This document shows, piece after piece, positions 3,151 to 51,584 of a stretch of 64,000 nucleotides of DNA. Every line of letters starts with the position of its first letter. Within the stretch, counting starts at the first letter, position 1. The stretch is from assembly GCA_046484665.1 (NCBI GenBank), contig JAWOIN010000069.1, forward strand, positions 7,114 through 71,113, written 5' to 3'. Both the position numbers and the translations under genes were made by a program. The stretch comes from Gemmatimonadota bacterium. Its GTDB lineage: Bacteria > Gemmatimonadota > Gemmatimonadetes > Palauibacterales > Palauibacteraceae. Under the pieces are notes generated by a model. It saw nothing but the letters and a program-made list of their open reading frames with translations, was not told where the DNA came from and searched no databases.

Positions 3151-4151
3151 GTGGTTGACCCGAACTCGTTCCGCCGTTCCGCCGCCCCGCGCGACGAAAC
3201 CCGCGCACTCGACGCGATGCGGAGGGAGATCCGCGCCCGGCAGATGAGCCTGCTGACCGAGGAGGCCTACGTCTCCTGGGCGCGGCGCTACCTCCGCTTT
3301 CACGACGGCCGCGATCCGCGCGAACTCGGCGGCGAGGGAATCGCCGCCTTCCTCACCCACCTCGCCGTTCGCCGAAACGTCGCGCCGTCCACCCAGAGCC
3401 ATGCCTCGAGCGCCCTGCTCTTCCTGTATCGCGAGGTGCTCGGGACCGAGGTGAACCCACCGAAGGGCGTGGTGCGCCCGATGGCGCCGCGCCGGCTTCC
3501 CGTCGTGCTCACCCCCTCGGAGGTCCGGGCCGTGCTCGGTCAGATCCGGGGGGCGCACCGGCTCGCCGCGACCCTCCTGCACGGGAGCGGGCTCCGCCTG
3601 CTCGAGTGTCTCCGGCTGCGCGTCAAGGACGTCGACTTCGAGCGCCGCGAGATCCTCGTGCGGGCCGGCAAAGGCGACCGGGACCGCGTCACCATGCTGC
3701 CCGACAGCGCCCGTACCGCGCTGGGTCGGCACCTGCGCCGCGTGCAAGAGCAGCACGAGCGCGATCTCGCCGCCGGCGCCGGATGGGTAGTCCTGCCCCG
3801 CGCGCTCACGCTCAAGTACCCGAACGCCGGCCGCGAGTGGGCCTGGCAGTGGGTGTTTCCCGCCACACGGATCCACGCGGGGTCGGCTACCGGGCGGCGC
3901 TTCCGATACCACCTCCACGAGTCCGCCGTCCAGCGCGCCGTCAAGGAGGCCGTGCAGCGGAGCGCGTCCCGAAGAGGGCCACATGCCACACCTTCCGGCA
4001 CTCCTTCGCCACCCACCTGCTCGAGAGCGGCTACGACATCCGGACCGTCCAGGAGCTGCTCCGGCACCGTAGCGTCCGCACCACGATGGTCTACACCCAC
4101 GTCCTGAACCGCGGCGGCCTCGGTGTCCGCAGTCCCGCCGACGCGTTCTGA
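3151..4151 (+). pseudogene. intI: integron integrase IntI (tyrosine recombinase), interrupted by apparent 1-nt frameshift near 3961-3970
   Basis: Frame 1 ORF 3151..4107 carries [32 protein letters not shown] and the IntI-specific insert [21 protein letters not shown]; frame 0 ORF 3606..4151 carries [36 protein letters not shown]. The junction reads ..AVQRSASRR in one frame and ..[15 protein letters not shown] in the other. Confidence 0.85.
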
Positions 4152-4390
4152 CCGTCGGGCGGGAAGCCGATCCCCGCCCGCCCCCTCTCCCGCGTCCAGC
4201 CTCCTGCGACTTCTCATGCCCCTGCGGCGTCCCGAAGTGGCGCCCTGCGCGAACCGCGCCTAGATTTTTCCACGCGCCCCACATCACCGAATTGCGTGCG
4301 GTTCGGCACATCGCCCGCACCGCTCGCAAGTCAACATCCCGGCCCGGGCTCCGTGCATCAGCCGCGTACCGTGCGGGAGGGGGCTGGGGT

Positions 4391-4416
4391 GTTGGGATGT
4401 CTGCTAGGAGTTAGAT
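4391..4416 (+). other. candidate attI / first cassette junction (GTTAGAT at 4410-4416, GTTGGGA at 4391-4397) in lower-GC spacer downstream of intI
   Basis: GTTRRRY-type box in the only lower-GC stretch between intI stop and first cassette ORF; position inferred, not proven. Confidence 0.3.
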
Positions 4417-4444
4417 GGCTATCAAACTCTGGGGCTAGACGGGA

Positions 4445-4822
4445 ATGAAGCGGAATATGGACTTGATCAGAGAGCTGCTTCTCTACTTCGAGGAGAAACC
4501 AGACGCCGCAGCCGTTGAGCCCTCTGAAATCTCGATTCCTGGTCCCGATTCCGACGATATCGCCTATCACATAGTCCTCTTGTCGGAAGCCGGCCTCCTC
4601 AGTCATGAGCGAGTCGAAAGCACGACGACGCCGAGCCGTCTCATCAAGTCGATACCATTCCGGCTTACTTGGGAAGGGCACGAGTTCCTCGATTCCGCTC
4701 GAAACCAGTCCACCTGGGAGCGTGCGAAGACCACCCTTGCCGCCAAGGGACTTGCCACTAGCTACGAACTCCTTAAGGCCCTCCTACTCAGCTACGGCAA
4801 ACAGCAGCTCGGTCTCAGCTAG
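4445..4822 (+). CDS. DUF2513-like hypothetical protein (cassette 1)
   Basis: ORF track; N-terminal MDLIRELLLYFEE pattern recalled from DUF2513 family; followed directly by attC. Confidence 0.5.
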   Translation: MKRNMDLIRELLLYFEEKPDAAAVEPSEISIPGPDSDDIAYHIVLLSEAGLLSHERVESTTTPSRLIKSIPFRLTWEGHEFLDSARNQSTWERAKTTLAAKGLATSYELLKALLLSYGKQQLGLS

Positions 4823-4833
4823 TGCGACACGCC

Positions 4834-4919
4834 ATCTAACACACGCCTGGAGCTGACGCGGAGGTGACTGTGGGCGGACGAATGATCGTGTCGCGCAGCT
4901 CAGGCGCTCACCGTCAGGT
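4834..4919 (+). repeat. attC site 1 (R'' ATCTAAC 4834-4840 ... R' GTCAGGT 4913-4919)
   Basis: Shares inner core GCCTGGAGCTGACGCG ... CGCGCAGCTCAGGCG with other attCs; imperfect inverted repeat with bulged bases. Confidence 0.7.
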
Positions 4920-4936
4920 CTGCGGGTAGGGGAGGA

Positions 4937-5260
4937 CTACTTGGCCGGGACCTCGCGGGACCGTTTGCGACGAGGCCGTACGACGTCGAGCACCGCATCC
5001 GGGTGTCGCGCTGCTACCCGCAGCAGCACGCGCGCCGGCCCCCGGGGGGTGCGCCGGCCCTGCTCCCAGTTCTGGAGCGTGCGTACGCTGATTCCGAGCA
5101 ACGAGGCGAACTTCTCTTGCGACAGCCCGTACGCCTCCCGAATCGCGGTCACGTCCTTCTCCGGAAGCTCGAAGGTCCGGACTGCCGCCTCCTTCTCTTT
5201 CAGGATCCGGCCGCCCTGGAGCACACTGGCCTCGAGCTCCGCGAACAGGTCCTTCTTCAC
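4937..5260 (-). CDS. higA: HigA-2-like antitoxin, XRE-family HTH (GTG start)
   Basis: ..AIREAYGLSQEKFASLLGISVRTLQNWEQGRRTPRGPARVLL.. HTH; starts 1 nt after overlapping toxin stop; real start GTG at 5260, not the 230-aa track ORF. Confidence 0.8.
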   Translation of the reverse strand: MKKDLFAELEASVLQGGRILKEKEAAVRTFELPEKDVTAIREAYGLSQEKFASLLGISVRTLQNWEQGRRTPRGPARVLLRVAARHPDAVLDVVRPRRKRSREVPAK

Positions 5261-5574
5261 CTGTATTCCTCCTCGACGATCCGGTGCAGGACCTTCTTCT
5301 GCTCCGGGCTCAGATCGCTGCGCTCGTTCTTGACGAAGACCATGAGCATGAGGATCGTCTCGTGAGACCCGGCCCAGTAGTAAATGACGCGTACGCCGCC
5401 GCGCTTGCCCCTGCCCGGGGTACGCCAGCGGATCTTCCGCAGGCCGCCCGCACCCGGAATCAGGCTTCCGGCCTCCGGGTCGGCGGCGAGACGTAGTTGC
5501 AGAAGCCGGTAGCTCTCCGGGTCCAGCAGCTCCTGGACGCGTCGGGAGAAGACCTCCGTCTCCTGAATCAGCAC
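5257..5574 (-). CDS. higB: HigB-2-like toxin (RelE/ParE superfamily, Gp49-like)
   Basis: GAGGLRKIRWRTPGRGKRGGVRVIYYW...ILMLMVFVKNERSDLSPEQKKVL matches HigB-2 signature GTGGLRKIR..GKGKRGG.R.IYY; toxin-first operon order. Confidence 0.85.
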   Translation of the reverse strand: MLIQETEVFSRRVQELLDPESYRLLQLRLAADPEAGSLIPGAGGLRKIRWRTPGRGKRGGVRVIYYWAGSHETILMLMVFVKNERSDLSPEQKKVLHRIVEEEYR

Positions 5575-5582
5575 CCGATAGC

Positions 5583-5599
5583 ATACGCCATTGGCGTAT
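5583..5599. promoter_or_regulatory. perfect 8-1-8 palindrome ATACGCCA-T-TGGCGTAT immediately upstream of higB start; candidate operator
   Basis: Seen directly in sequence; located 9 nt upstream of the GTG start of higB on the minus strand. Confidence 0.4.
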
Positions 5600-5620
5600 T
5601 CCCGACAAGGAGTGTTCGAG

Positions 5621-5709
5621 ACCTAACACTCGCCTGGAGCTGACGCGATGGGTTCAACGTGCAGACAACAGACAATCCAGGCGCGCAGCTCAGGCGTTCA
5701 CCGTTAGGC
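5621..5709 (+). repeat. attC site 2 (R'' ACCTAAC ... inner repeats GCCTGGAGCTGACGCG / CGCGCAGCTCAGGC ... R' GTTAGGC 5703-5709)
   Basis: R''/R' complementary 6/7; inner repeats complementary with two unpaired bases (extrahelical-base pattern). Confidence 0.8.
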
Positions 5710-5739
5710 GGCAACGTGGACGACACACGTGGAGACGCG

Positions 5740-6141
5740 ATGAGAATAGCCCTGGCACTCTTGGCTACGCTGTTGATCATGTACGTGGTCACCTTCGTGA
5801 TCTACGGCGTCGTAGCCGCCGTAACAGGTCTGGAACCGCCGCAGGATGGCTCGCCAGCGCGGTTCCTTCTCGGTGTCCTGATTACCAAGCTCGGCCTGGC
5901 CCTGGGGTTCGTGTTGTTGTTCGCCCTGGCGCGTGAAGTGTGGCAAGCCCGCTGGCCGGTCTATGCTCTCATCTGGTGGGTTCTCTTCGCTGTTTCGGAA
6001 ATCGGGCAGGCCGTCGCGCCGGGGTACTCGTGGCTTGAGGCCGCGGGCGGGATCATGGCCGAGGCGGTCTACTGCCCCCTTTCCGCGTGGGCGACGGCGC
6101 GCCTGCTGGGTGGCCGCGGCGCGGGACGGGTTGCCGCCTAA
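5740..6141 (+). CDS. small polytopic membrane protein, unknown function (cassette 3)
   Basis: ATG 5740 in frame of ORF 5659..6141; three hydrophobic helices; TAA stop lies inside R'' GCCTAAC of next attC. Confidence 0.5.
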   Translation: MRIALALLATLLIMYVVTFVIYGVVAAVTGLEPPQDGSPARFLLGVLITKLGLALGFVLLFALAREVWQARWPVYALIWWVLFAVSEIGQAVAPGYSWLEAAGGIMAEAVYCPLSAWATARLLGGRGAGRVAA

Positions 6142-6249
6142 CTAGCGCATGCAGCCGACATCCGGCTCAGTCACTCGCGCTGCATTCGGCCTGACGGCCG
6201 GCAGCGCTCGCGCCATCGCCGGCTGCGGCTGATGCGCGATTCGTTAGGC
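6136..6249 (+). repeat. attC site 3, different sequence family (R'' GCCTAAC 6136-6142 ... R' GTTAGGC 6243-6249)
   Basis: Perfectly complementary R''/R'; inner repeats GCGCATGCAGCCG / CGGCTGATGCGC complementary with one bulged base. Confidence 0.75.
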
Positions 6250-6306
6250 GGGCCGCGGTGATACTCCGTATACTCTAGGGAGGCATCCATTCATCGGAGA
6301 AACCGC

Positions 6307-6522
6307 GTGAAGAACGAGTTTACGGCGATCATTGAGCAGGACGGAGACTGGTACATCGCCTACTGCCCCGGGATCCCGGGCGCGAATGGGCAGGGACATA
6401 CACGAGATGAGGCGAGGCGAGTCTCGCCGAAGCTATTGCGCTCATTCTCGATGATCGCCGGGAAGACGGCCTGCGAGGGCTTCCTGCGGACGCCGAGCAG
6501 GATACCGTCACGGTCGATTGAA
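6307..6522 (+). pseudogene. hicB: HicB-family antitoxin, frameshifted near 6412-6425
   Basis: MKNEFTAIIEQDGDWYIAYCPGIPGANGQGHTRDEARR in one frame; ESLAEAIALILDDRREDGLRGLPADAEQDTVTVD in another frame ending TGA ~6520-6522. Confidence 0.7.
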
Positions 6523-6709
6523 GCGTAGCGCGCTTCTTCGTCACCGGCGCCGCCATGGCTGCTATCTCAAGCGGGAAGGTAGCTCTCACTCCCTTCGGAT
6601 CAATCCTCAGACGGGCGAAGTGCAGGCGATTCCCAGGCGCGCTGAGATTCCCGATCGCTTGGCACACCGAATCTGCTGCGGCCTCTCAGTACCAGAGCTC
6701 GGCAGGTGA
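6518..6709 (+). CDS. hicA: HicA-family toxin (YcfA-like), TTG start
   Basis: MKRSALLRHRRRHGCYLKREGSSHSLRINPQTGEVQAIPRRAEIPDRLAHRICCGL matches HicA HGC.L.REG.HS..NP.TG...PRH.EIP..LA..IC pattern. Confidence 0.75.
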   Translation: MKRSALLRHRRRHGCYLKREGSSHSLRINPQTGEVQAIPRRAEIPDRLAHRICCGLSVPELGR

Positions 6710-6718
6710 CTCGCAACC

Positions 6719-6807
6719 GCCTGACACGCGCCTGGAGCTGACGCGATGGGTTCAAAGTGCACACGCCAGCCAATCTGGGTGCGCAGCCCAGGCACTGACC
6801 GTTGGGC
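6719..6807 (+). repeat. attC site 4 (R'' variant GCCTGAC ... R' GTTGGGC 6801-6807)
   Basis: Same inner core as attC 1/2; begins 10 nt after hicA stop. Confidence 0.7.
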
Positions 6808-6822
6808 GGACGAAGCTCTGAA

Positions 6823-7569
6823 ATGACCATTCTCCTCCTGTTCACCTTGTATGCGATCGCCCTGTCAGCCGCGCTGGCACTGACAGGACACCGATCGCAG
6901 ACCTCTCCCTCGGGGGCGGCACCTCGCCACCCTCCCAGGCGGCTGCTGGTTGTGGGAGCGACCGGCGGTACTGGTCGTCAGCTTCTCGTGCAAGCGCTGG
7001 AGCGAGGTTACGAGGTCACGGCATTCGTCCGAGATCCTTCACGGCTTTCGATCGCTCATCGTCGACTGACCGTCGTGCGGGGTGATGTGCTCGACTTCGA
7101 TTCCGTAGACACTGCGATGCGCGGACAAGATGCGGTGCTGTCGGCTCTTGGCCACAAGCGGTTCTTCTACCCGACTCGCATCCTCTCGGAGGGCACTCGC
7201 AATATCCTGCGGGCCATGGAGAGCAAAGGCGTCCGGCACCTGGTGTGCGAGACCGCTATGGGAATCGGAGACAGTGCCGGGCGAATGGGCCTGTACTACA
7301 CGCTCTTCGTCATTCCGGTGATTCTGCCGTTCTACTTCTGGGACAAGACCCGGCAGGAACGGGTGATCGCGGGGAGTAATCTGGAATGGGTGATCGTGCG
7401 ACCCGGGATGCTGACCAACGGCGCCAGGCGGAGTTCGTATCGTCATGGTCGTCGCATCGGCAGCTTCCTCCGGACCGTGCGGATCTCCCGTGCCGACGTG
7501 GCGGACTTCATGCTCAACCAGCTGGAGTCCGACACGTACGCCCGTACTGCAGTGGGCGTGTGTTGGTAG
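6823..7569 (+). CDS. NAD(P)H-binding NmrA/SDR-like protein
   Basis: LLVVGATGGTGRQLLVQALERGYEVTAFVRDPSRL Rossmann GxxGxxG motif; ATG 6823 in frame of ORF 6802..7569. Confidence 0.7.
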   Translation: MTILLLFTLYAIALSAALALTGHRSQTSPSGAAPRHPPRRLLVVGATGGTGRQLLVQALERGYEVTAFVRDPSRLSIAHRRLTVVRGDVLDFDSVDTAMRGQDAVLSALGHKRFFYPTRILSEGTRNILRAMESKGVRHLVCETAMGIGDSAGRMGLYYTLFVIPVILPFYFWDKTRQERVIAGSNLEWVIVRPGMLTNGARRSSYRHGRRIGSFLRTVRISRADVADFMLNQLESDTYARTAVGVCW

Positions 7570-7677
7570 AGCAGCCGGTATCTCGCCGCCGCCCGACAAG
7601 CCGCCGCAGCCGCCGAGCGGCGCGGCTTCGCCCGGCTGATTCCAGATGACCGTGAGCGCCGCTCGCGTCCGAGCGGC

Positions 7678-8223
7678 ATGGCGTCAGGCATCGCCGTTCA
7701 TCAGCGGAACTGGCGAAGAATGAGTCTGGAGGCCGACCAGCGCTCGTTGCTCTCCCGGTATCTGCAGGGGCCGGCGTTGCTCGAGCAGGCGGTTGCTGAC
7801 TTGAGCGACGCCGACCTCGATGCTCCTCCATCGGACGGCGGCTGGACCATTCGGCAGATCGTTCACCACGTCGTTGATGGGGATGATCTCTGGATGACGT
7901 GCATCAAGGCTGCACTCGGGAACGAGGAAGACGACTTCACTTTGGAGTGGTACTGGCAGCTACCGCAGGACACTTGGGCCGAGCGCTGGGGCTATGCACA
8001 CAGACCACTCGACGTTTCCCTGGCTCTGTTCGGGGCGATCCGAGCTCACATCGCCCAACTGGTGGAACGAGCACCTGACGGATGGAGTCGATCGATGCGT
8101 GTCCGGACGCCGCAAGGAACCGAGCGCGTGTCGGTCCGCGCTGTGCTCGAGATGCAGGCTGATCACGTATCGCATCACGTCGAGAGGATTGCCGCCATTC
8201 GCGCGGAGCGTGGTGACGCCTGA
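7678..8223 (+). CDS. DinB/YfiT-like (DinB_2) metal-dependent hydrolase-fold protein
   Basis: HHVVDGDDLW ... HxxxH-type motifs; TGA stop overlaps R'' of following attC. Confidence 0.65.
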   Translation: MASGIAVHQRNWRRMSLEADQRSLLSRYLQGPALLEQAVADLSDADLDAPPSDGGWTIRQIVHHVVDGDDLWMTCIKAALGNEEDDFTLEWYWQLPQDTWAERWGYAHRPLDVSLALFGAIRAHIAQLVERAPDGWSRSMRVRTPQGTERVSVRAVLEMQADHVSHHVERIAAIRAERGDA

Positions 8224-8306
8224 CACGCGCCTGGAGTTGACCCGGTAAACATCGCGGCGAGGAAGCGGAACATCTGGTCGCCCAGCTCAGGCGCTCGCCG
8301 TGGACG
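8218..8306 (+). repeat. attC site 5 (R'' GCCTGAC 8218-8224 ... degenerate R' GTGGACG 8300-8306)
   Basis: Core CGCCTGGAGTTGACCCGG ... CCCAGCTCAGGCGCTCGCCG related to other attCs. Confidence 0.6.
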
Positions 8307-8328
8307 TGCAGGCGGTCCCGTGTCTAGT

Positions 8329-8347
8329 GTATATTGGCGTCATATAC
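8329..8347. promoter_or_regulatory. AT-rich inverted repeat GTATAT-N7-ATATAC upstream of brnT; candidate promoter/operator
   Basis: Seen in sequence between attC 5 and brnT ATG (8355). Confidence 0.3.
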
Positions 8348-8354
8348 TCCTGCC

Positions 8355-8660
8355 ATGAACGGGTCCTCGGAGCAGCTGGAGGCGTGTACCGGCTTCGAAT
8401 GGGACGTCGGCAACGTCGACAGGAACCGGGAGAGTCACGGGGTCTCGAATGCCGAGTGCGAGCAGGTCTTCTTCCAGCGCCCGCTCCTCATCGCCCCTGA
8501 TCTCGAGCATTCCCACGAGGAGCCTCGCTTCGCTGCCCTCGGGCGCATGGCCGATGGCCGGCGACTCACGATCGTGTTCACGATCCGCGGCACGTTGATC
8601 CGCGTGATCTCGTCACGGCTGATGAGCCGCCGCGAGCGGAGGGTCTATGAGCAAGCGTAA
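8355..8660 (+). CDS. brnT: BrnT-family toxin (DUF497)
   Basis: FEWDVGNVDRNRESHGVSNAECEQVF...RLTIVFTIRGTLIRVISSR matches BrnT F.WD..N...HGI pattern; overlaps brnA start. Confidence 0.8.
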   Translation: MNGSSEQLEACTGFEWDVGNVDRNRESHGVSNAECEQVFFQRPLLIAPDLEHSHEEPRFAALGRMADGRRLTIVFTIRGTLIRVISSRLMSRRERRVYEQA

Positions 8661-8967
8661 GAAGCAGCCCAGAGTGCGTGAGCCCGTCCCGGAGTTCCGC
8701 TCCGAGGAAGAGGAGCGGGAGTTCTGGGCCGAGCACGACGTGGTCAACTACTTCGACTGGGAGAACTCCGTTCCGGGCTCGTTCCCCGCTCTCAAGCCCT
8801 CGACCCAGACGATCTCGCTCCGGCTGCCCAAGGCGCTCCTGGAGGACCTCAAGGCGCTCGCCAACGAACGCGATGTCCCCTACCAGAGCCTCCTCAAGGT
8901 CTACCTCGCCGAGCGCGTAGCCCGGGAGCGCGACCGCCGACGCCGACGCACCGAGGCTGACGTCTAA
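8647..8967 (+). CDS. brnA: BrnA-family antitoxin (CopG-like)
   Basis: EEEEREFWAEHDVVNYFDWEN...ISLRLPKALLEDLKALANERDVPYQSLLKVYLAERV; TAA stop overlaps R''. Confidence 0.75.
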   Translation: MSKRKKQPRVREPVPEFRSEEEEREFWAEHDVVNYFDWENSVPGSFPALKPSTQTISLRLPKALLEDLKALANERDVPYQSLLKVYLAERVARERDRRRRRTEADV

Positions 8968-9048
8968 TCCGCGCCTGGAGCTGACACGGAGGGTGACGGT
9001 GGACAGACATGCTCGGTCGTCGCGCAGCCCGGGCGCTCACCGTTAGGC
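8962..9048 (+). repeat. attC site 6 (R'' GTCTAAT ... R' GTTAGGC 9042-9048)
   Basis: Core CGCCTGGAGCTGACACGG ... CGCGCAGCCCGGGCGCTCACC. Confidence 0.75.
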
Positions 9049-9088
9049 GGTACTGAAAGGTTCCCGCGGAAACGAGGGGCTAGCAACC

Positions 9089-9436
9089 TTGGCTCGCGAC
9101 CCAGTTGACGTGGCTCAGGCACAGTTGGATGCGTACAACGCAGGCGACCTTGAGGCATTTCTCGAGTGCTACGCCGAGGAAGCGCAGATCGAGGACGGCG
9201 ACGGGAACGTCCTCATGGGTGATCGCGAGGCGATGCGCTTCTTCTATGAGACGCTCTTCAGCCAGAGTCCGGATCTGCACTGTGAACTCCGGTCTCGGAT
9301 CGACGTCGGCCGCTTCGTTGTGGACGAGGAGTACGTGACCGGAGCGCACCTGGAGGGTCTCCCAACCGAGATCCACGCGGCCGTGGTCTATCGCATCGAA
9401 GACGGGTTCATCCGGCACGTCCGCTTCCTAGTGTAG
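9089..9436 (+). CDS. NTF2-like (SnoaL/ketosteroid isomerase-like) small protein, TTG start
   Basis: ORF track; LDAYNAGDLEAFLECYAEEA..VVYRIEDGFIRHVRFLV pattern typical of NTF2-fold family. Confidence 0.55.
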   Translation: MARDPVDVAQAQLDAYNAGDLEAFLECYAEEAQIEDGDGNVLMGDREAMRFFYETLFSQSPDLHCELRSRIDVGRFVVDEEYVTGAHLEGLPTEIHAAVVYRIEDGFIRHVRFLV

Positions 9437-9443
9437 GTGTACC

Positions 9444-9573
9444 GCCTAGCACGCGCCTGGAGCTGACGGCGCGCGTGCCTGGCACGAGAGGGGTTGACTG
9501 ACTTGGTTCAGATCACTGGCGCGGCGCGCTGCCGGGGCGGCGAATGCCGCAGCTCAGGCGCTCGCCGTTATGC
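9444..9573 (+). repeat. attC site 7, long form (R'' GCCTAGC 9444-9450 ... R' GTTATGC 9567-9573)
   Basis: Core ACGCGCCTGGAGCTGACGGCGCGC ... CGCAGCTCAGGCGCTCGCC; ~130 bp. Confidence 0.65.
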
Positions 9574-9878
9574 CGACTCCCCGCATGGATAAGGACGAAG
9601 CCAGGGCAATACTCGCCGAGTGCCTCGCTTCGTACCGGGCTATGACCTATCCAGAGCTCGCGTTGCGAGTCGACACCGTCGAGACCGCTGAGATCCGGGC
9701 TCCGTCCGGAGTGCAGTATCAGCTTGAAGTCCAGTTCTTCTGGGATTCCAAGCCGAATCACGAGGTCAGAGTTATCGGTTCGGTCGACGACGGGGGTTGG
9801 CGGGCTTTTGTTCCCCTGTCCGACGACTTCATCCTGGCGCCGGATGGCACCTTCGTAGGCGAGCAGCCAGCAGATTGA
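9570..9878 (+). CDS. hypothetical protein (cassette 8), ATG created inside R' box GTTATGC
   Basis: ORF track; no recognisable motif; coding GC3 bias. Confidence 0.45.
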   Translation: MPTPRMDKDEARAILAECLASYRAMTYPELALRVDTVETAEIRAPSGVQYQLEVQFFWDSKPNHEVRVIGSVDDGGWRAFVPLSDDFILAPDGTFVGEQPAD

Positions 9879-9879
9879 C

Positions 9880-9967
9880 AAGCGCTGGCAGCTGACGCGG
9901 ACTGCAGTTGTGGCGTCAGACGCGCCGGCGATCGTGGCTGCGCAGCGGAAGCGCAAGACCGTCAGTC
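9880..9967 (+). repeat. attC site 8, degenerate (GCTGGCAGCTGACGCGG ... GCTGCGCAGCGG ... R' GTCAGTC 9961-9967)
   Basis: Retains GCAGCTGACGCGG / CGCAGCGG halves of the family core; R'' not clear. Confidence 0.4.
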
Positions 9968-9980
9968 GGCTTGAGCGGAC

Positions 9981-10769
9981 ATGATGGACGCGGGAACCTG
10001 CGATCGGTGGTATCAGACGCCGCGCGGCCGGTGGATCGGGCAACGCGAGGTAGCGTTGCTCCTTGGAGAGCTGCAACTTCATCCGGGCGAATCGCTGCTC
10101 GATGTAGCGTGTGGCACCGGCTTCTTCACGCGTGCTCTTGCGTCCGCGATGGGAGCGCCGGTCACCGGCGTCGATATCAGCCCAGAATGCGTGGCGTATG
10201 CGCGTCGTCGAGACACGGACAAGGTGTCCTACGAGGTCGCCGACGCACGTGCCCTGCCTTACGGAGCCGCGAGCTTCGACGTCGTCGTGTCGATCGCGGC
10301 ACTGTGCTTAATCGAAGAGGAACGCGCCGCTGTCCGCGAGATGTGTCGCGTCGCGCGCCGCCGGGTAGCCATCGGTCTACTGAATCGCCGGAGCCTCCTT
10401 TGGCTCCGGAAGGGTAGGAACGGTGGCCGCGGAGGCTACCGCGGTGCTCGCTGGCACACGACCGGCGAGGCCGCGGACCTGCTCAAGGGTCTGCCGGTGC
10501 AGCTTTCTCGGGTGCGGACCGCCATACACCTTCCGGGTGACGGGCGAATCGCGCGGGTCATGGAGCGCCTATGGCCGCCGTGGCTCCACACCGGCGCGTT
10601 CATGCTCGTGGTGGCAGACGTTGCTGCGGTTACCGATGCGCCACCTGACAGCAGCGTGCAGCGGACGGCGCTTCGCGCTGTCGCTGATGCTGAGCGTCAG
10701 GCGGCGTACCTTGAAATGGTACGAGTCCGTATTCGAACCGCGACGACGCTGCCACCCGGGTCAGTGTGA
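9981..10769 (+). CDS. class I SAM-dependent methyltransferase
   Basis: [16 protein letters not shown]...VTGVDIS...FDVVVS motifs I-III. Confidence 0.75.
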
Positions 10770-10779
10770 GGAGGCGTCA

Positions 10780-11271
10780 ATGAGTCCGAAGAAGGCCACG
10801 CAGAAATCCGGCGAGAGCACCACCGCGATCAACAGGAAGTCCAAGGGATTCACGGACGAGGAACGAGCTGCAATGAAGGAGCGCGCCCAGGAGCTGAAGG
10901 CGGAAGCAAGCGGCGGCGCGCGCGCGAGCAAGAACAGGGCGGACGGCGAAAGAGACGTGCTCGCGAAGATCGCCGAGATGCGGGAACCGGATCGCGCCAT
11001 GGCCAAGCGGTTTCATGCTGTCATCCTGGCCAGCGCGCCGACGCTCTCGCCGAACACCTGGTACGGGATGCCCGCGTACGCCAAGGGCGGCAAGGTCGTC
11101 TGCTTCTTCCAAAGCGCGCAGAAGTTCAAATCGAGGTATGCGACGTTCGGCTTCAGTGACGAGGCGAATCTCGACGAAGGCGCCATGTGGCCGACCTCTT
11201 TCGCACTGAAGGACTTGACCGCCGCCGAAGAGGCGAGGATCGGCGCTCTCGTGAGGAGAGCGGTGAGCTGA
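10780..11271 (+). CDS. DUF1801 (YdhG-like) domain protein
   Basis: [32 protein letters not shown] typical DUF1801 core; ATG 10780 preceded by GAGGAGG. Confidence 0.7.
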
Positions 11272-11542
11272 GGAGCGATCTCGGCATCGGGCCCCGACCA
11301 GGGGCCTTCGGTAGCTCCGACAGACCCGGCGATATCATTCTCACTGCTGAAAACGAGGATTCGGCATGGGCACGCCAGCCCATGCAATCGGTCGAGTAGC
11401 GTGAGGCAATCGGGAGAGCCGGCGTCACGGCACCGCCCGAAGTGGCGATGGCCGACCAGGTCCATCCGGTTCCGGCCTCACGGGTCCACGCTTTGGTCTG
11501 GCTTTGGCGGGAGCAGCGAGCGCCACCAGGGCAGTGAGCGCC

Positions 11543-11609
11543 GCCTGACCGGCGACTTCACCTGCCGACGGCCGCCCGGCAACCGCAGCTCCTTCGAGCA
11601 CAGGTGAGC
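11543..11609 (+). repeat. degenerate attC remnant (R''-like GCCTGAC ... CAGCTCCTTCGAGCACAGGTGAGCGG)
   Basis: Resembles 5' and 3' halves of array attCs (compare CAGCTCAGGCGCTCACCGTTAGGCGG). Confidence 0.3.
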
Positions 11610-11656
11610 GGCCCCGCTCGAAAGCCCCATTGCATCAGATGGGAGGACGCGCAGCG

Positions 11657-12169
11657 ATGGATTCGTCGGCACTCGAGTTCCTGCTTCGGTTCAATATCTG
11701 GGCGAACCGGCGTTTGTTGGATGCTATCGAGAGCCTGTCGGGAAACGCGGATCTGACTCCGATCCGAGACATGGTCGCGCACATTGTCGCGGCAGAGTGG
11801 ATCTGGATGGAACGGCTGGAGGGCGTCAGCCCGGGCGAAGTTCCGGCCTGGGTCGACGCAGAGGGACTGGAGCCCCTCCGGGAGCGGTTGGCGGTGGTCG
11901 AGACACGCAGAGCTGCCTTTCTGGAGACTCTGGATGAGAGCGGGACAAGGCGTGTGGTGGAGTTTCGGCTCCTCAACGGCAGTAGCGGAACGGCGGAAGT
12001 CTGGCAGCTGATGGTCCACGTCATCAATCACTCCACATATCATCGTGGGCAGCTGGCGAGACTGTTGCGCGAGGCCGGGGTGACCCCACCCACCACAGAC
12101 CTGATCTCCTTCTGTCCGGAGGGAGGCCAGTATCGGAGTCGAGAGTCGCGACGATCGGACTGCGAATGA
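11657..12169 (+). CDS. DinB-family protein (DinB_2)
   Basis: FNIWANRRLLDAIESL ... HVINHSTYHRGQLARLLREAG characteristic DinB C-terminus. Confidence 0.7.
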   Translation: MDSSALEFLLRFNIWANRRLLDAIESLSGNADLTPIRDMVAHIVAAEWIWMERLEGVSPGEVPAWVDAEGLEPLRERLAVVETRRAAFLETLDESGTRRVVEFRLLNGSSGTAEVWQLMVHVINHSTYHRGQLARLLREAGVTPPTTDLISFCPEGGQYRSRESRRSDCE

Positions 12170-12395
12170 TCGTCGTCCTGAATGGACCGCCTCGCATCGG
12201 AGAGGGGACGCTCGCAGAAGCGCTCGCCGAAAACATCGAGAAGTGCGCCACCTGCCGGGGGTCTGCGGCAGCAGAGCAGGAGTCGCGGGTCCGGAGCCGT
12301 TCGCCTTGCAGCCCGCCGCTCCGGGCAGGCATCATGCTCACGCAGCGGAACGGCATAGTCGGCAGATACGCGACAGCAGGGGAGGTCACTGCCGA

Positions 12396-12746
12396 ATGAA
12401 GAGCTACCTCCTTGTGCTGAACGAGGGCCCCTACGGAAACGAGCGTTCGTACAACGCGCTGCGTTTCGCCGCCGCGCTCCGCAAGCAGCCCGACGCGCTC
12501 GTGCGCGTCTTCCTGCTCGGCGAGGCCGCGTTCTGCGCCCTGAAGAACCAGGAAACGCCCCAAGGAATCTACAATATCGGACGGATGCTCCGGATCCTGA
12601 CGACTCACGGCGCCGTGGCCACGTGAGGCTCCTGCGCCAAGGCCCGCGGGATCGGGCCCGAGCAGCTCCTGGAGAAAGTGGAACTCGCGAGCATGGAGCA
12701 GCTGGCCGGCTGGGCTCACGAGAGCGATCAGGTTCTCGTGTTCTGA
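12396..12746 (+). CDS. DsrE/DsrF/YchN-like protein with in-frame TGA (12624-12626); candidate selenoprotein or nonsense pseudogene
   Basis: MKSYLLVLNEGPYGNERSYNALRFAAAL..HGAVAT-TGA-GSCAKARGIGPEQLLEKVELASMEQLAGWAHESDQVLVF; family-conserved C-terminus continues in same frame after TGA; GGAGG 8 nt upstream of ATG. Confidence 0.6.
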
Positions 12747-12756
12747 TTTCACCACG

Positions 12757-13743
12757 ATGTCCGGCACGGGACGCGAGCTGGCGCTCACCGCTTCATGGAG
12801 CCCCGGGCCCTTCGCATCCGATGCCTTCCATCCGCCGTTGCCAGCATGCAGCGGATTCTCCGCGCTCCCGGTGTCCACGGGAGTCGAGATGGAGCTCGAC
12901 ATGACGGAGGATTGCAAGCGAGCATCGGATCTGGCAGGTCGCTCGCGCGGGGGCTGGAAGCTGGCCCTCGGCGAGCTCGCCATCGTATCGCTCGGCGTCC
13001 TGATCGCTCTCTGGGCCGACCAGGCGATCCAGGCCCGCCAGGAGGCCGCCAGGGAGGTCGGTTACCTCGAGCGCCTCCAGACGGATGTGCGCGCGGACAT
13101 CCGCTCCCTGCGATTCAGCGCCGACCAGGCGCGGAACCGGCTCGCGATCACTCGGCAGGTCGATGCCTGGCTCCACGACCCGGACGGAAGGCCCGATCCC
13201 GACTCACTGGTCTTGAGCGCGCACTTCGCAGGCGTCACGTTCCCGCCCACGATCTCGACGTTCACGATCGACGAGCTGAGGTCCACGGGTGACCTCGGCC
13301 TCCTGCGGAATCAGGCGCTCAAGAGACAGATCGCCGACTACTACAACCAGATCGGCCTGCAGATCGACCGGTGGATCGCCTGGGGTGACGAGGGGCTCAC
13401 CGAGACGTACTTCCGCGAGCTGGCGTTCATCGTGGACCCTGAGCTCAGGATTCGGGCGGGCACGTTCGACCCGGCGCTGATGCAGCGCTTCCTGAGCGCC
13501 TCCGGCGGAGACGCGCCGTCCAGATACGCCGAGATCCAGGGAGCCGCACCGGAGATCGGAGCCACGCTCGCCGACGCGGACCGGATCCTCGGTCGGATGC
13601 GGGCGCGTCCGAACTACGAGGGCTATCTCCGCGACAGCATGTACTGGGCGCATCTGTCGGCCCAGCTGCTGGACGGCGTCGTCCTCACCGCCGAGGAGCT
13701 GGAGGCGACGATCGCGGAGGAGCTCGAGGCTCTCGGCCGATAG
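12757..13743 (+). CDS. hypothetical membrane-anchored protein, unknown function (start uncertain, possibly 12888/12900)
   Basis: ORF track; one TM (LALGELAIVSLGVLIALWA) then soluble domain; strong GC3 bias. Confidence 0.45.
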   Translation: MSGTGRELALTASWSPGPFASDAFHPPLPACSGFSALPVSTGVEMELDMTEDCKRASDLAGRSRGGWKLALGELAIVSLGVLIALWADQAIQARQEAAREVGYLERLQTDVRADIRSLRFSADQARNRLAITRQVDAWLHDPDGRPDPDSLVLSAHFAGVTFPPTISTFTIDELRSTGDLGLLRNQALKRQIADYYNQIGLQIDRWIAWGDEGLTETYFRELAFIVDPELRIRAGTFDPALMQRFLSASGGDAPSRYAEIQGAAPEIGATLADADRILGRMRARPNYEGYLRDSMYWAHLSAQLLDGVVLTAEELEATIAEELEALGR

Positions 13744-13790
13744 CGCCGCGAGCTCACCGATCACGGCCCCCTGTTCGCGCGAGCCGACCC

Positions 13791-14552
13791 GTGAGCCGAG
13801 AACGACGCGCCGTCCTCCCGGAGATGCCGCGACGGGCATGCGAGCGGCTTCGAGACGGGCTCGTGGAGATTCTGGGGCCGGACCTCGTCGGGCTCTGGGC
13901 GTACGGCGCCGAGACCCAGCCAGATCGCCCGGCACGCCTCGGGGATCTCGACGTCCACGCGGTCTTCGCGCGCCCGCCCGCGCCCGGCGTCGCCCGCGCG
14001 ATCGCAGCGCTGCAGTCCCGCTCCGCGCGTGAGTTCGGCGTCGAGTGGGACGCCTGGTACATCGCGGAGCACGACGCCCGGAGCGTAACGCCGCCCCGGC
14101 ACGTGCTGCAGCCACACCTCGTCGACGGCGCGTGGGCGCTGCACCGGGCCCACTGGTTGGCAGGGGCTTTCGTTTCCCTCCACGGCGCCGAGCCCCCGGA
14201 GCTCGTGCCGCCGCCTTCCTGGCCCGAGCTGCTGGATGCCCTGTGCCGGGAGCTCGCCTTCATCGCGAGCCTGCTCGGACGCGGGAGGGCTGGGACCGCC
14301 GAGATCGCCTACTGCGTGTGCAACGCGTGCCGGGTCCTCTACAGCGTGAAGCACCGGGACGTGGTCGTCTCGAAGCGGGCCGCCTCGAGCTGGGCTCTCG
14401 GGAGCGCCCCGGCCGCCTGGCGGCAGGCGATCGAAGCCGCGGTGCGGGTCTACGACGACGCGGAGGTCGGCGGTGATGATGCGGTACTCAGGTCGTCCGC
14501 CGCAGAAATCGTCACGGCGGTGGCGGAGCGGCTGTCCCGCGAGACGAGCTGA
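13791..14552 (+). CDS. nucleotidyltransferase-domain + DUF4111 protein (ANT(3'')/ANT(9) aminoglycoside adenylyltransferase-like)
   Basis: LVGLWAYGAETQPDRPARLGDLDVHAVF (NTase GS..D.D) and C-terminal ..VVSKRAASSWAL.. DUF4111-like motif. Confidence 0.6.
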   Translation: MSRERRAVLPEMPRRACERLRDGLVEILGPDLVGLWAYGAETQPDRPARLGDLDVHAVFARPPAPGVARAIAALQSRSAREFGVEWDAWYIAEHDARSVTPPRHVLQPHLVDGAWALHRAHWLAGAFVSLHGAEPPELVPPPSWPELLDALCRELAFIASLLGRGRAGTAEIAYCVCNACRVLYSVKHRDVVVSKRAASSWALGSAPAAWRQAIEAAVRVYDDAEVGGDDAVLRSSAAEIVTAVAERLSRETS

Positions 14553-14556
14553 GGAG

Positions 14557-15030
14557 TCAGCCTCGGCCGCCGAGCCGATTCCGCCTCCCGTCGACATTCG
14601 ACTCGATCCGCGAGCCGTCGGCGACGAGCGACGCCGGTTCCTCGGCCCGTCGCGCCAGCGCCAGCGAGCCCGCCGCGCAGGCCGCGCTCGCCAGCCCGAA
14701 CACGGCTCCGAGCCCGAGCAGGGCCGCGCCCCCGAGGCCCGCGGACAGGACGAAGACCGCCGCGAACAGCACGCCTCCGACCGCTCCCCACGCCGCGAAG
14801 CGCGGAATCGACATCTGCTCGAAGGTTCTCCGGCGCCCGACGAACCCCAGGACCCCGGAGAAGGACACGCCCGCGAGGAAGCCGAGCGCGCCGAATCCGA
14901 GCGGAAACGGGACGTCGGCGGCGTCGGGACCGACCACCAGGAGCAGGGCCATGCCCGCGCCGAACCAGGCCAGCGCCCAGGCCAGGCCTATCCCGAACGC
15001 GCCGCGGATCCGTCGCAGCCACTTCCTCAT
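14557..15030 (-). CDS. hypothetical polytopic membrane protein
   Basis: ORF track; Gly/Ala-rich hydrophobic helices. Confidence 0.4.
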   Translation of the reverse strand: MRKWLRRIRGAFGIGLAWALAWFGAGMALLLVVGPDAADVPFPLGFGALGFLAGVSFSGVLGFVGRRRTFEQMSIPRFAAWGAVGGVLFAAVFVLSAGLGGAALLGLGAVFGLASAACAAGSLALARRAEEPASLVADGSRIESNVDGRRNRLGGRG

Positions 15031-51311: not shown

Positions 51312-51584
51312 ATGGCGGGAAGGGAGTTCAGCGCCGACGAGGCCAGGCGAATCGGTGACCGCCTGGGCGTGGCCTGGGACCGGGTTCCACTCGAGGAGTT
51401 CCGAATGGGACTCCGCGTCGAGCTCGAGCACGGCGCGCACGACCCGGAGACCGACGTCACGGCGGATGACCTCGACATGACCGGTAAGATCGCGCTCGCG
51501 CACCTCAAGGAGTTCCCCGACTACTACACGCGCCTCGCGAAGATGGAGGGTGAGGCGGACGAGTACTGGTCCACCCGCAGATAG
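51312..51584 (+). CDS. small hypothetical protein (DUF5661-like)
   Basis: ORF track; GLRVELEHG..IALAHLKEFPDYY. Confidence 0.4.
   Translation: MAGREFSADEARRIGDRLGVAWDRVPLEEFRMGLRVELEHGAHDPETDVTADDLDMTGKIALAHLKEFPDYYTRLAKMEGEADEYWSTRR

Follow-up and report, generated by a model that had tools for sequence, protein, structure and literature searches.

attC sites of two related families at the proximal end of a chromosomal integron in a Gemmatimonadota genome

Introduction

What are the inverted repeats that lie between positions 4834 and 6249 of a contig from a Gemmatimonadota metagenome-assembled genome (MAG), and did the genes that they follow all come from the same source? All positions given here are those of the 64-kb window of this contig that was analysed (the window), and its + strand is taken as the top strand. 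The original prediction, made from the letters alone, read the repeats as integron attC sites of two families: seven sites sharing one inner core, and one site with an unrelated core whose cassette was likely acquired from a different pool.

We find that the interval 4834–6249 is the proximal end of a chromosomal integron and that it holds three of the ten attC sites of the full array, which extends over 4834–10702. The probability that the repeats are attC sites of this integron, with a majority family belonging to the lineage itself and one cassette carrying the attC of a foreign family, is estimated to be roughly 90%. From about 4.2 to 13 kb the GC content is 63–66%, compared with 70–77% in the flanks. 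The chromosomal position and the gene order (a TPR gene followed by the integron integrase gene intI) are common to the window and to three related loci, L001, L003 and L004. Of these, L001 (JGI contig Ga0645780_01292), a homologous locus with a 93%-identical IntI, is used below for the comparison of cassettes.

Results

The left half of the inner core, GCCTGGAGCTGACGCG, is found exactly at 4845, 5632 and 6730, and with up to two mismatches also at 8229, 8973 and 9455. These six matches are to be compared with 0.15 expected, and none of 100 shuffles reaches six. The right half, CGCGCAGCTCAGGC, is exact at 4892 and 5682 and occurs with up to two mismatches at 6780, 8279, 9021 and 9546, each copy partnering a left half, 60–105 nt downstream. 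An independent repeat search returned a 24-nt left arm seven times, including a diverged copy at 9876–9899, and a right arm six times. The halves, 16 and 14 nt long, are complementary save for two bases of the left half, the G at core position 5 and the A at core position 12, as the pair table confirms for the two unpaired bases originally described.

Counted from the first R'' base, these extra bases stand at positions 16 and 23 of the R''/L'' arm, with a 6-bp stem between them, an arrangement that the seven majority-type sites and attC3 have in common. Read on the bottom strand, the two bases are C16 and T23 (G and A on the top strand). As they share the top-strand arm with AAC, they lie opposite AAC on the bottom strand. 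According to PMC5027507, extrahelical bases are located on the '' arm, with usually G at position 16 and a conserved T at 23 or 24, a 6-bp stem has to lie between the first of them and the last one, and the spacer usually has 5–6 nt per arm. The bulge arrangement found here is thus the strand-selection geometry published there, in agreement with the earlier assignment of the two bases to strand choice.

The same pattern is seen in 83 members of the majority family, collected from the window, several MAGs and metagenome contigs. On the top strand, column 16 is G in 79 of the 83 and column 23 is A in equally many; 91.7% of the cells are paired, and sliding the partner columns lowers this to 20–49%. 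In 74 members the AAC/GTT triplet keeps its A-T pair. An excess of G·T pairs possible on the bottom strand only is not meaningful in this set (92.2% against 91.7% paired).

To locate the sites, a covariance model of the seven majority-type sites of the window (R1) was run over the 64 kb with filters off. It gave ten credible attC sites, all on the + strand, all within 4834–10702 and each 3' of an open reading frame (ORF). The scoring is strand-specific, the + strand of attC2 having 91.6 bits and its − strand 11.6. With lengths of 60–130 nt the sites are within the 57–141 bp criterion, and, co-oriented throughout, each follows an ORF or a toxin–antitoxin pair.

Recognisable R''/R' boxes are present in all ten sites, and attC1–3 match the strict form RYYYAAC/GTTRRRY. 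The R'' variants end in GAC (five sites), AAT (one) and AGC (one). The R' boxes with a triplet other than GTT are those at 4913, 7683, 8300, 9961 and 10696, and in cassette 6 both triplet changes are complementary (TCAGGC, GCCTGAC). By direct reading of cassettes 1–6, R'' complements the TTRRRY with which its own cassette starts at 39 of 42 positions, and the R' of the same attC at 31 of 42.

We now consider where the cassettes begin. The putative attI crossover point, G|TTAGAT, lies at 4409–4415 (+) and marks the start of cassette 1, about 260 bp 3' of the intI stop. The homology to L001, 95% here, passes through ...GGAGTTAGA and ends at 4415. The TTAGAT of the window complements ATCTAAC, the attC1 R'' box, exactly, and the same position in L001 reads TTAGAC and complements GTCTAAC, the R'' box of the first attC of L001 itself. 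This is as predicted by insertion at attI through cleavage at G|TT.

The flanks are shared with L001 at 95–97% identity. After ending at the attI G|TTAGA, the homology resumes at 9548, in the right arm of attC8, continues to 12771, and is found again from 14616. Between attI and the shared distal cassettes there are eight cassettes in the window and three different ones in L001. Cassettes have thus been replaced between near-identical genomes, and the breakpoints fall at the predicted crossover points.

Concerning the families, R1 was trained on the window's own sites, and two further covariance models were built without them: R3 comes from 69 sites of other genomes only, and R2 from 14 sites in the metagenome arrays L034, L050, L062 and L107, without attC3. 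The scores on R1, R3 and R2, in this order and in bits, are 86.6, 73.3 and 33.7 for attC1, 91.6, 81.2 and 39.3 for attC2, 83.6, 64.0 and 30.6 for attC4, 75.4, 53.0 and 15.8 for attC6, and 79.8, 61.6 and 27.9 for attC7. These five are clear members of the majority family. Two sites are peripheral, namely attC8 (71.3, 25.4 from the arms only, and 36.3) and attC9 (69.3, an intermediate 40.9, and 33.9). The proposal of seven sites sharing one core therefore stands for the five clear members and less well for attC8 and attC9, and both halves are exact only in attC1 and attC2. The two remaining sites outside attC3, that is, attC5 (16.3 on R1, below the reporting threshold on R3, 23.8 on R2) and attC10 (24.9, 26.4 and 35.0), are further types. 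Since they fit neither family, the window contains at least four attC types, not the two originally proposed.

The exact majority pattern was found in 16 genome stretches, of which 14 are in Gemmatimonadota or Gemmatimonadales MAGs, and in the majority-family loci 63 of 76 attC matches reach at least 50 bits on R1. The majority family is thus a repeat typical of this Gemmatimonadota lineage. A much larger array is present in a related MAG contig, CAWECO010000001.1. The two exceptions are exact majority attCs on short contigs, L015 (JAVVDV010000121.1, 560 bp) and L018 (JASFLG010000590.1, 3 kb), in bins labelled Wenzhouxiangellaceae and Pseudomonadales; they reflect either binning contamination or cassette transfer to Gammaproteobacteria.

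The site attC3 (6136–6249, +) behaves differently. Its location and its complementary boxes GCCTAAC/GTTAGGC are as first described, its arms are GCGCATGCAGCCG/CGGCTGATGCGC, and its extra bases are G6151 and A6158. The perfect R''/R' match says less than it seems to, because the last six R' bases belong to the next cassette. With 87.2 bits on R2 (E = 2e-20), 38.7 on R1 and 29.2 on R3, and with a length of 114 nt against 86–89 nt for the majority family, attC3 is a member of another, widespread family of about 105–115 nt. Its left arm, TAACNNGCGCATGCAGCCGAC, is found in at least 164 sites on at least 120 metagenome contigs, often in several co-oriented copies per contig, and among the matches listed 110 sites have a matching right arm and a GTT box. 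A metagenome site, L050:9288–9402(−), is 92% identical to attC3 over 115 nt. The arrays of L034, L062 and L107 are nearly homogeneous for this family, at about 105 nt, and share with attC3 the internal motifs GTCAC...CTGC...CGCGCC.

The core of attC3 is, however, not unrelated to that of the majority family, as had been stated from a comparison made 2 nt out of register. When GCGCCTGGAGCTGAC and GCGCATGCAGCCGAC are put in register from R'', 12 of their 15 positions are the same, both bulged bases included, and each of the three differences (positions 14, 17 and 21) has its complementary change on the L' arm. The reading GCGCCTGGAGCCGAC, two changes off attC3, is found in some sites of the majority type from other genomes. 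The two families are thus related.

Could attC3 then have drifted in place from the majority family, without having been acquired? The shared L'' positions and bulges just mentioned, together with an identical spacer geometry, would fit such a history, as would the repeat search, which groups the attC3 right arm with the majority family at 70% identity (family D5). The models, with attC3 far higher on R2 than on R1 or R3, speak against it, as do the greater length, the near-identical site in an unrelated metagenome contig and the internal motifs common to attC3 and the L034, L062 and L107 arrays. In-place drift is therefore close to refuted, and we give it very little credence.

Acquisition of cassette 3 is thus the preferred explanation, and the membership of attC3 in another family supports a probable origin from a different cassette pool, as the original prediction had it. 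The R2 score compares with 16–39 bits for the other sites of the window, and the loci from related MAGs and metagenome contigs, about 170 kb in total, contained no attC3-family site above 50.5 bits on R2. The ORF of the cassette (5740–6141) encodes a 133-aa membrane protein of unassigned function. This protein is 100% identical to an NCBI entry from a Gemmatimonadota MAG, and homologues with 70–75% identity occur as cassettes of other arrays, including one from a Gemmatimonadales MAG. Downstream of the homologues in L145 and L147 there are attCs of the GCGCATGCA type, of about 142 nt in L147 and truncated in L145; in L142 and L146 a different, unrecognised sequence follows. No homologue of the protein was found in the attC3-family loci. 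One of these loci, L062, has a co-oriented IntI with 62% identity to that of the window and is on a chromosomal contig, beside genes for RNase E/G and PFOR. The named homologues of its IntI are all about 62–65% identical and are spread over Acidobacteria, Vicinamibacterales, Methylomirabilis and Planctomycetota, which gives no pointer to the host. The donor pool could be another Gemmatimonadota lineage.

We turn now to the folding of the bottom strands, calculated with DNA energy parameters, with a z value for each site. The expected hairpin is the best bottom-strand fold in five sites. The energies are −17.8 kcal/mol for attC1 (z = −2.0), −20.9 for attC2 (z = −3.5, the complete canonical hairpin), −44.0 for attC3 (z = −5.7), −33.6 for attC5 (z = −2.3, R box paired) and −17.8 for attC10 (z = −1.9, where the hairpin is the best fold on both strands). 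In attC1 the bulged L stem is formed and the R box is unpaired. The bulged stem expected for the bottom strand is thus present in the best folds of all three sites of the interval, which bears out the original proposal. In the ensemble, the L stem has a probability of 0.95 in attC1 and 0.96 in attC2, and of 0.14, 0.17, 0.05, 0.48 and 0.04 in attC4, attC6, attC7, attC8 and attC9, respectively. In attC6, where no more than 3 of the 7 R-box pairs and 12 of the 15 L-stem pairs can form, the best fold is favoured over the canonical one by 9.9 kcal/mol. Part of the array is thus structurally eroded.

The integrase gene intI is located at 3151–4151 (+), just upstream of the array and co-oriented with the cassettes, with a 1-nt deletion at ca 3964. 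When repaired, its product scores 411.8 bits on TIGR02249 (cutoff 265) and matches the crystallised Vibrio integrase VchIntIA (2a3v) with E = 8.7e-78. In the alignment, with residue roles taken from PMC2095811, it carries the IntI-specific insertion, keeps the Trp equivalent to W219 of VchIntIA and has Arg at the position of W157/IntI1-R168. Its nearest named homologues are from Palauibacterales and Gemmatimonadota. Compared with the intact homologue in L001, one G is absent, GAGCGGCGTC of L001 being GAGC-GCGTC in the window (3960–3966), and this puts the catalytic HxxR, His and Tyr residues out of frame. Since it is the sole non-triplet indel within a gene over 10.2 kb of homology with L001, the deletion does not look like general assembly noise. 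Cury et al. 2016 call an integron complete if it has intI and one or more attC; here the gene is unmistakable after repair and split without it. In the strict sense, and unless a sequencing error accounts for the deletion, the locus is an array of cassettes beside an intI pseudogene.

The layout, with intI and the cassettes in the same direction, is the one called "inverted integrase", and it is found in every related locus with an IntI match (L001–L005, L007, L008 and L017) and in L062. About 100 bp past the intI stop there is a terminator-like hairpin with a T run (4247–4259, GCGCGAACCGCGC CTAGATTTTT), and an inverted repeat CCCGCAC...GTGCGGG at 4314–4377, just upstream of attI, may be part of attI or of a promoter region. 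A scan of 3900–5000 for sigma-70-like promoters found no cassette promoter.

The genes of the array are typical cassette cargo, with Pfam assignments given where available. Cassette 1 is a DUF2513 ORF (4445–4822), followed by attC1 at 4834–4919 (+; extra bases G4849 and A4856). Cassette 2 is a RelE-like/HTH toxin–antitoxin pair on the minus strand, with attC2 at 5621–5709 (+; G5636 and A5643), and cassette 3 is the small membrane protein discussed above. Cassette 4 has HicB-like and HicA-like ORFs and ends in attC4 (6719–6807, +), which has an eroded stem. The HicB-like ORF (6307–6528) is frameshifted, the frame changing after ...TRDEARR (ca 6415–6425) and the C-terminal part (SLAEAIALILDDRREDGL...) being in another frame. 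Cassette 5 encodes an NAD(P)H-binding protein, and its attC5 (7591–7689, +) is atypical, without canonical bulges on the '' arm; read directly, its box sequences fit the adjoining cassette boundaries. A DinB_2 protein makes up cassette 6, before attC6 (8218–8306, +; R' box GTGGACG), a majority site and the most eroded one of the array.

Further along the array, cassette 7 is a BrnT/BrnA pair with attC7 at 8962–9048 (+; R'' box GTCTAAT). Cassette 8, a SnoaL_2 protein, is followed by attC8 at 9444–9573 (+), in which majority arms enclose a long unrelated terminal structure, giving 130 nt in all. Cassette 9 is a 102-aa ORF; its attC9 (9873–9967, +) is diverged but related to the majority family, and a single position sets it apart from L001:13681–13775. 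Cassette 10 is a methyltransferase with the short attC10 (10643–10702, +; 60 nt, bulges at 16 and 22/23), which is identical to L001:14451–14510. The methyltransferase ORF (9981–10769) runs through attC10 and ends 67 nt past it; its true stop may have been lost, or its last residues may be encoded by the attC.

A tail without a detectable attC follows at 10703–12771 (+), with DUF1801, DinB-family (the second of the locus) and DsrE-family ORFs. It is 96% identical to L001, and the GC content at 10–13 kb is cassette-like (0.65–0.66, against 0.70–0.77 in the flanks). It probably consists of old cassettes with decayed attC sites. Neither the covariance models nor a structural scan of 4200–13200 gave a credible attC past 10702, and model matches elsewhere (59590, 27288, 54123, 45257 and others) were rejected, being GC-rich hairpins without AAC/GTT boxes. 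The DsrE-family ORF (12396–12746) has an in-frame TGA at 12624–12626. A TGA stands at the same codon in the L001 homologue (16204 onward), and the 39 codons past it remain in frame and are conserved, giving a U-G-S-C (UxxC) motif; the TGA is a candidate selenocysteine codon in the integron tail. A hairpin GGCCCG...CGGGCC 14 nt past this TGA is no stabler than shuffled sequence, and no tRNA-Sec was found in the window.

At 12771/12772, where the homology to L001 breaks, the window reads CGCGAGCTGGCGCTCACCG, a decayed right arm of a majority attC; the 11-mer GGCGCTCACCG has three matches against 0.30 expected. The stretch 12772–14615 (GC 70–73%), with a 328-aa ORF of no assigned family and an AadA_C-like ORF, corresponds to 1.4 kb of unrelated DNA in L001. 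Far from the integron, 51323–51572 has 71–74% DNA identity to two DUF5661 cassette genes in the L004 array, and a cassette-type gene may therefore sit outside the array. Over the whole window, Rfam at gathering thresholds gave no match and ARAGORN neither a tRNA nor a tmRNA.

Discussion

No recombination was observed, and the mechanism is therefore carried over from work on Vibrio and on class 1 integrons. In single-stranded DNA, the bottom (minus) strand would fold into a hairpin in which pairing of R' with R'' forms the R box and pairing of L' with L'' the L box, with a short unpaired spacer between them. The two partnerless bases of the '' arm, C16 and T23, would be pushed out of the helix. 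The integrase would bind the R and L boxes, with the bulges setting the strand choice: as they lie opposite AAC on the bottom strand only, they would mark that strand for the integrase and fix the orientation of the cassette. Cleavage would take place between A and C of the bottom-strand AAC (GAC in four sites and CAC in one), equivalent to top-strand G|TT or G|TC. A cassette would be excised by recombination of attC with attC, and inserted next to attI, at 4409, by that of attI with attC.

A number of observations, besides the lack of observed recombination, weigh against the reading of the locus as an integron with functional attC sites. The first extra base is C, while it has been described elsewhere as G almost universally (PMC2727003). 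In that study, by Bouvier et al., the base is "almost exclusively a G", and a C16 mutant lost only 2.7-fold activity. In both families the spacer is asymmetric, the '' arm contributing about 2 nt (AC or TA) and the ' arm 5 nt (YGACC or GATTC), compared with the usual 5–6 nt on each; we regard this as a variant of the central spacer and not as its absence. The R' box has GTT in only five of the ten sites, GTC in four and GTG in one. For attC4, attC6, attC7, attC8 and attC9 the best fold is not the canonical hairpin (z from −1.4 to +1.4), and the bottom strand is the stabler one in only four of the ten sites, while the published average favours it by 2.1 kcal/mol. The gene intI is frameshifted as it stands. 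Finally, there is some circularity in R1, which R3 avoids, although the training sites of R3 were picked with R1.

Given these departures, one may ask if the repeats are nothing but generic GC-rich palindromes, similar to REP elements or terminators, that are found near a tyrosine recombinase gene by chance. The genome has a GC content of 70–75%, and weak GC-rich hairpins do occur elsewhere in the window, with up to 20.5 bits. Those hairpins lack AAC/GTT boxes, however, and the ten sites are co-oriented, each after an ORF, within 6 kb starting ca 0.7 kb past intI; they have bulges at 16 and 23, and the breakpoints of cassette replacement, as seen against L001, fall exactly on them. We consider this explanation refuted, with practically no probability left to it.

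A more serious option is that the array is a fossil, in which intI is inactive, the hairpins have decayed and the sites no longer recombine, so that one would be dealing with a relic and not a working system. The isolated deletion in intI, upstream of HxxR, His and Tyr, fits this well, and so do the L-stem probabilities of 0.04–0.17 for attC4, attC6, attC7 and attC9, the degenerate R boxes of attC6 and attC7, the cassette-like tail without attC and the second frameshift, in the HicB-like cassette gene. Still, the eight proximal cassettes differ from those of a genome with 95–97% identical flanks, and the turnover must therefore be recent. In addition, attC1, attC2 and attC3 are structurally intact, the single absent base could be a sequencing error, and another integrase in the genome could act in trans. 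We give the relic scenario a substantial but minor share of the probability, and retain that of an integron with recent cassette exchange. As to its present state, activity in cis is doubtful, because intI is frameshifted and sites are eroded, and, unless some integrase acts on it in trans, the array may by now be frozen.

Compared with known systems, the locus resembles sedentary chromosomal integrons such as that of Vibrio cholerae with its VCR repeats, in that one attC family dominates the arrays of the lineage and recurs across related genomes, and in that the arrays are chromosomal and flanked by housekeeping genes. VCRs are about 120–130 nt long, and the majority sites here, at 86–89 nt, are shorter. 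While the VCR has three extrahelical bases (G16, T20 and T24; PMC5027507), there are two here, the first being C and not G. Furthermore, sedentary integrons are defined by more than 19 attC sites or by occurrence in 100% of a species' genomes (Cury et al. 2016), whereas ten sites were detected here, and the host phylum is Gemmatimonadota.

The aadA7 attC, from a class 1 mobile integron, is the reference used in experiments for sites with two extrahelical bases, and the present sites share with it the bulges at 16 and 23, the 6-bp stem, T23 and the RYYYAAC/GTTRRRY boxes (PMC5027507). They differ from it in having C16 in place of G, the spacer of ca 2/5 nt, a longer terminal structure, and GTC or GTG in half of the R' boxes. 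For the 6-bp stem with its bulge, the majority family has GAGCTG[A]C, attC3 has CAGCCG[A]C and aadA7 has AAGCCG[A]C. In its layout, with intI co-directional with the cassettes and attI past its 3' end, the locus is like the integrons with an "inverted" integrase, of which that of Treponema denticola is an example. Such integrases form a sub-clade of the soil/freshwater IntI clade (PMC8352920). The logic and method of tracing cassette origin with taxon-specific attC covariance models are those of Ghaly et al. 2021 (PMC8352920), where Gemmatimonadota is not among the 11 taxa modelled.

One can speculate that the integrons of this Gemmatimonadota group, together with the soil and sediment arrays of the attC3 type, constitute a distinct structural subclass of attC. 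Its traits may be C as the first extrahelical base, the spacer of ca 2/5 nt, frequent GTC triplets and a co-oriented intI. We consider this rather unlikely. If true, the integrases would read the hairpin somewhat differently from the Vibrio/class 1 paradigm, and lineage-specific attC models could map cassette traffic among uncultured high-GC phyla.

Conclusion

The locus represents well-documented integron biology in an under-described phylum and is not a new kind of system, and the general understanding of integrons is unchanged by it. For a phylum of which most knowledge comes from MAGs, it is a clean and well-resolved case of integron dynamics, with one cassette that can be assigned to a foreign attC family by covariance models. 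In two features, a first extrahelical base that is C and not G and a spacer that is short and asymmetric, the sites depart slightly and testably from rules that are mainly proteobacterial. With the two models of this study, the tracing of attCs by taxon could be extended to Gemmatimonadota.

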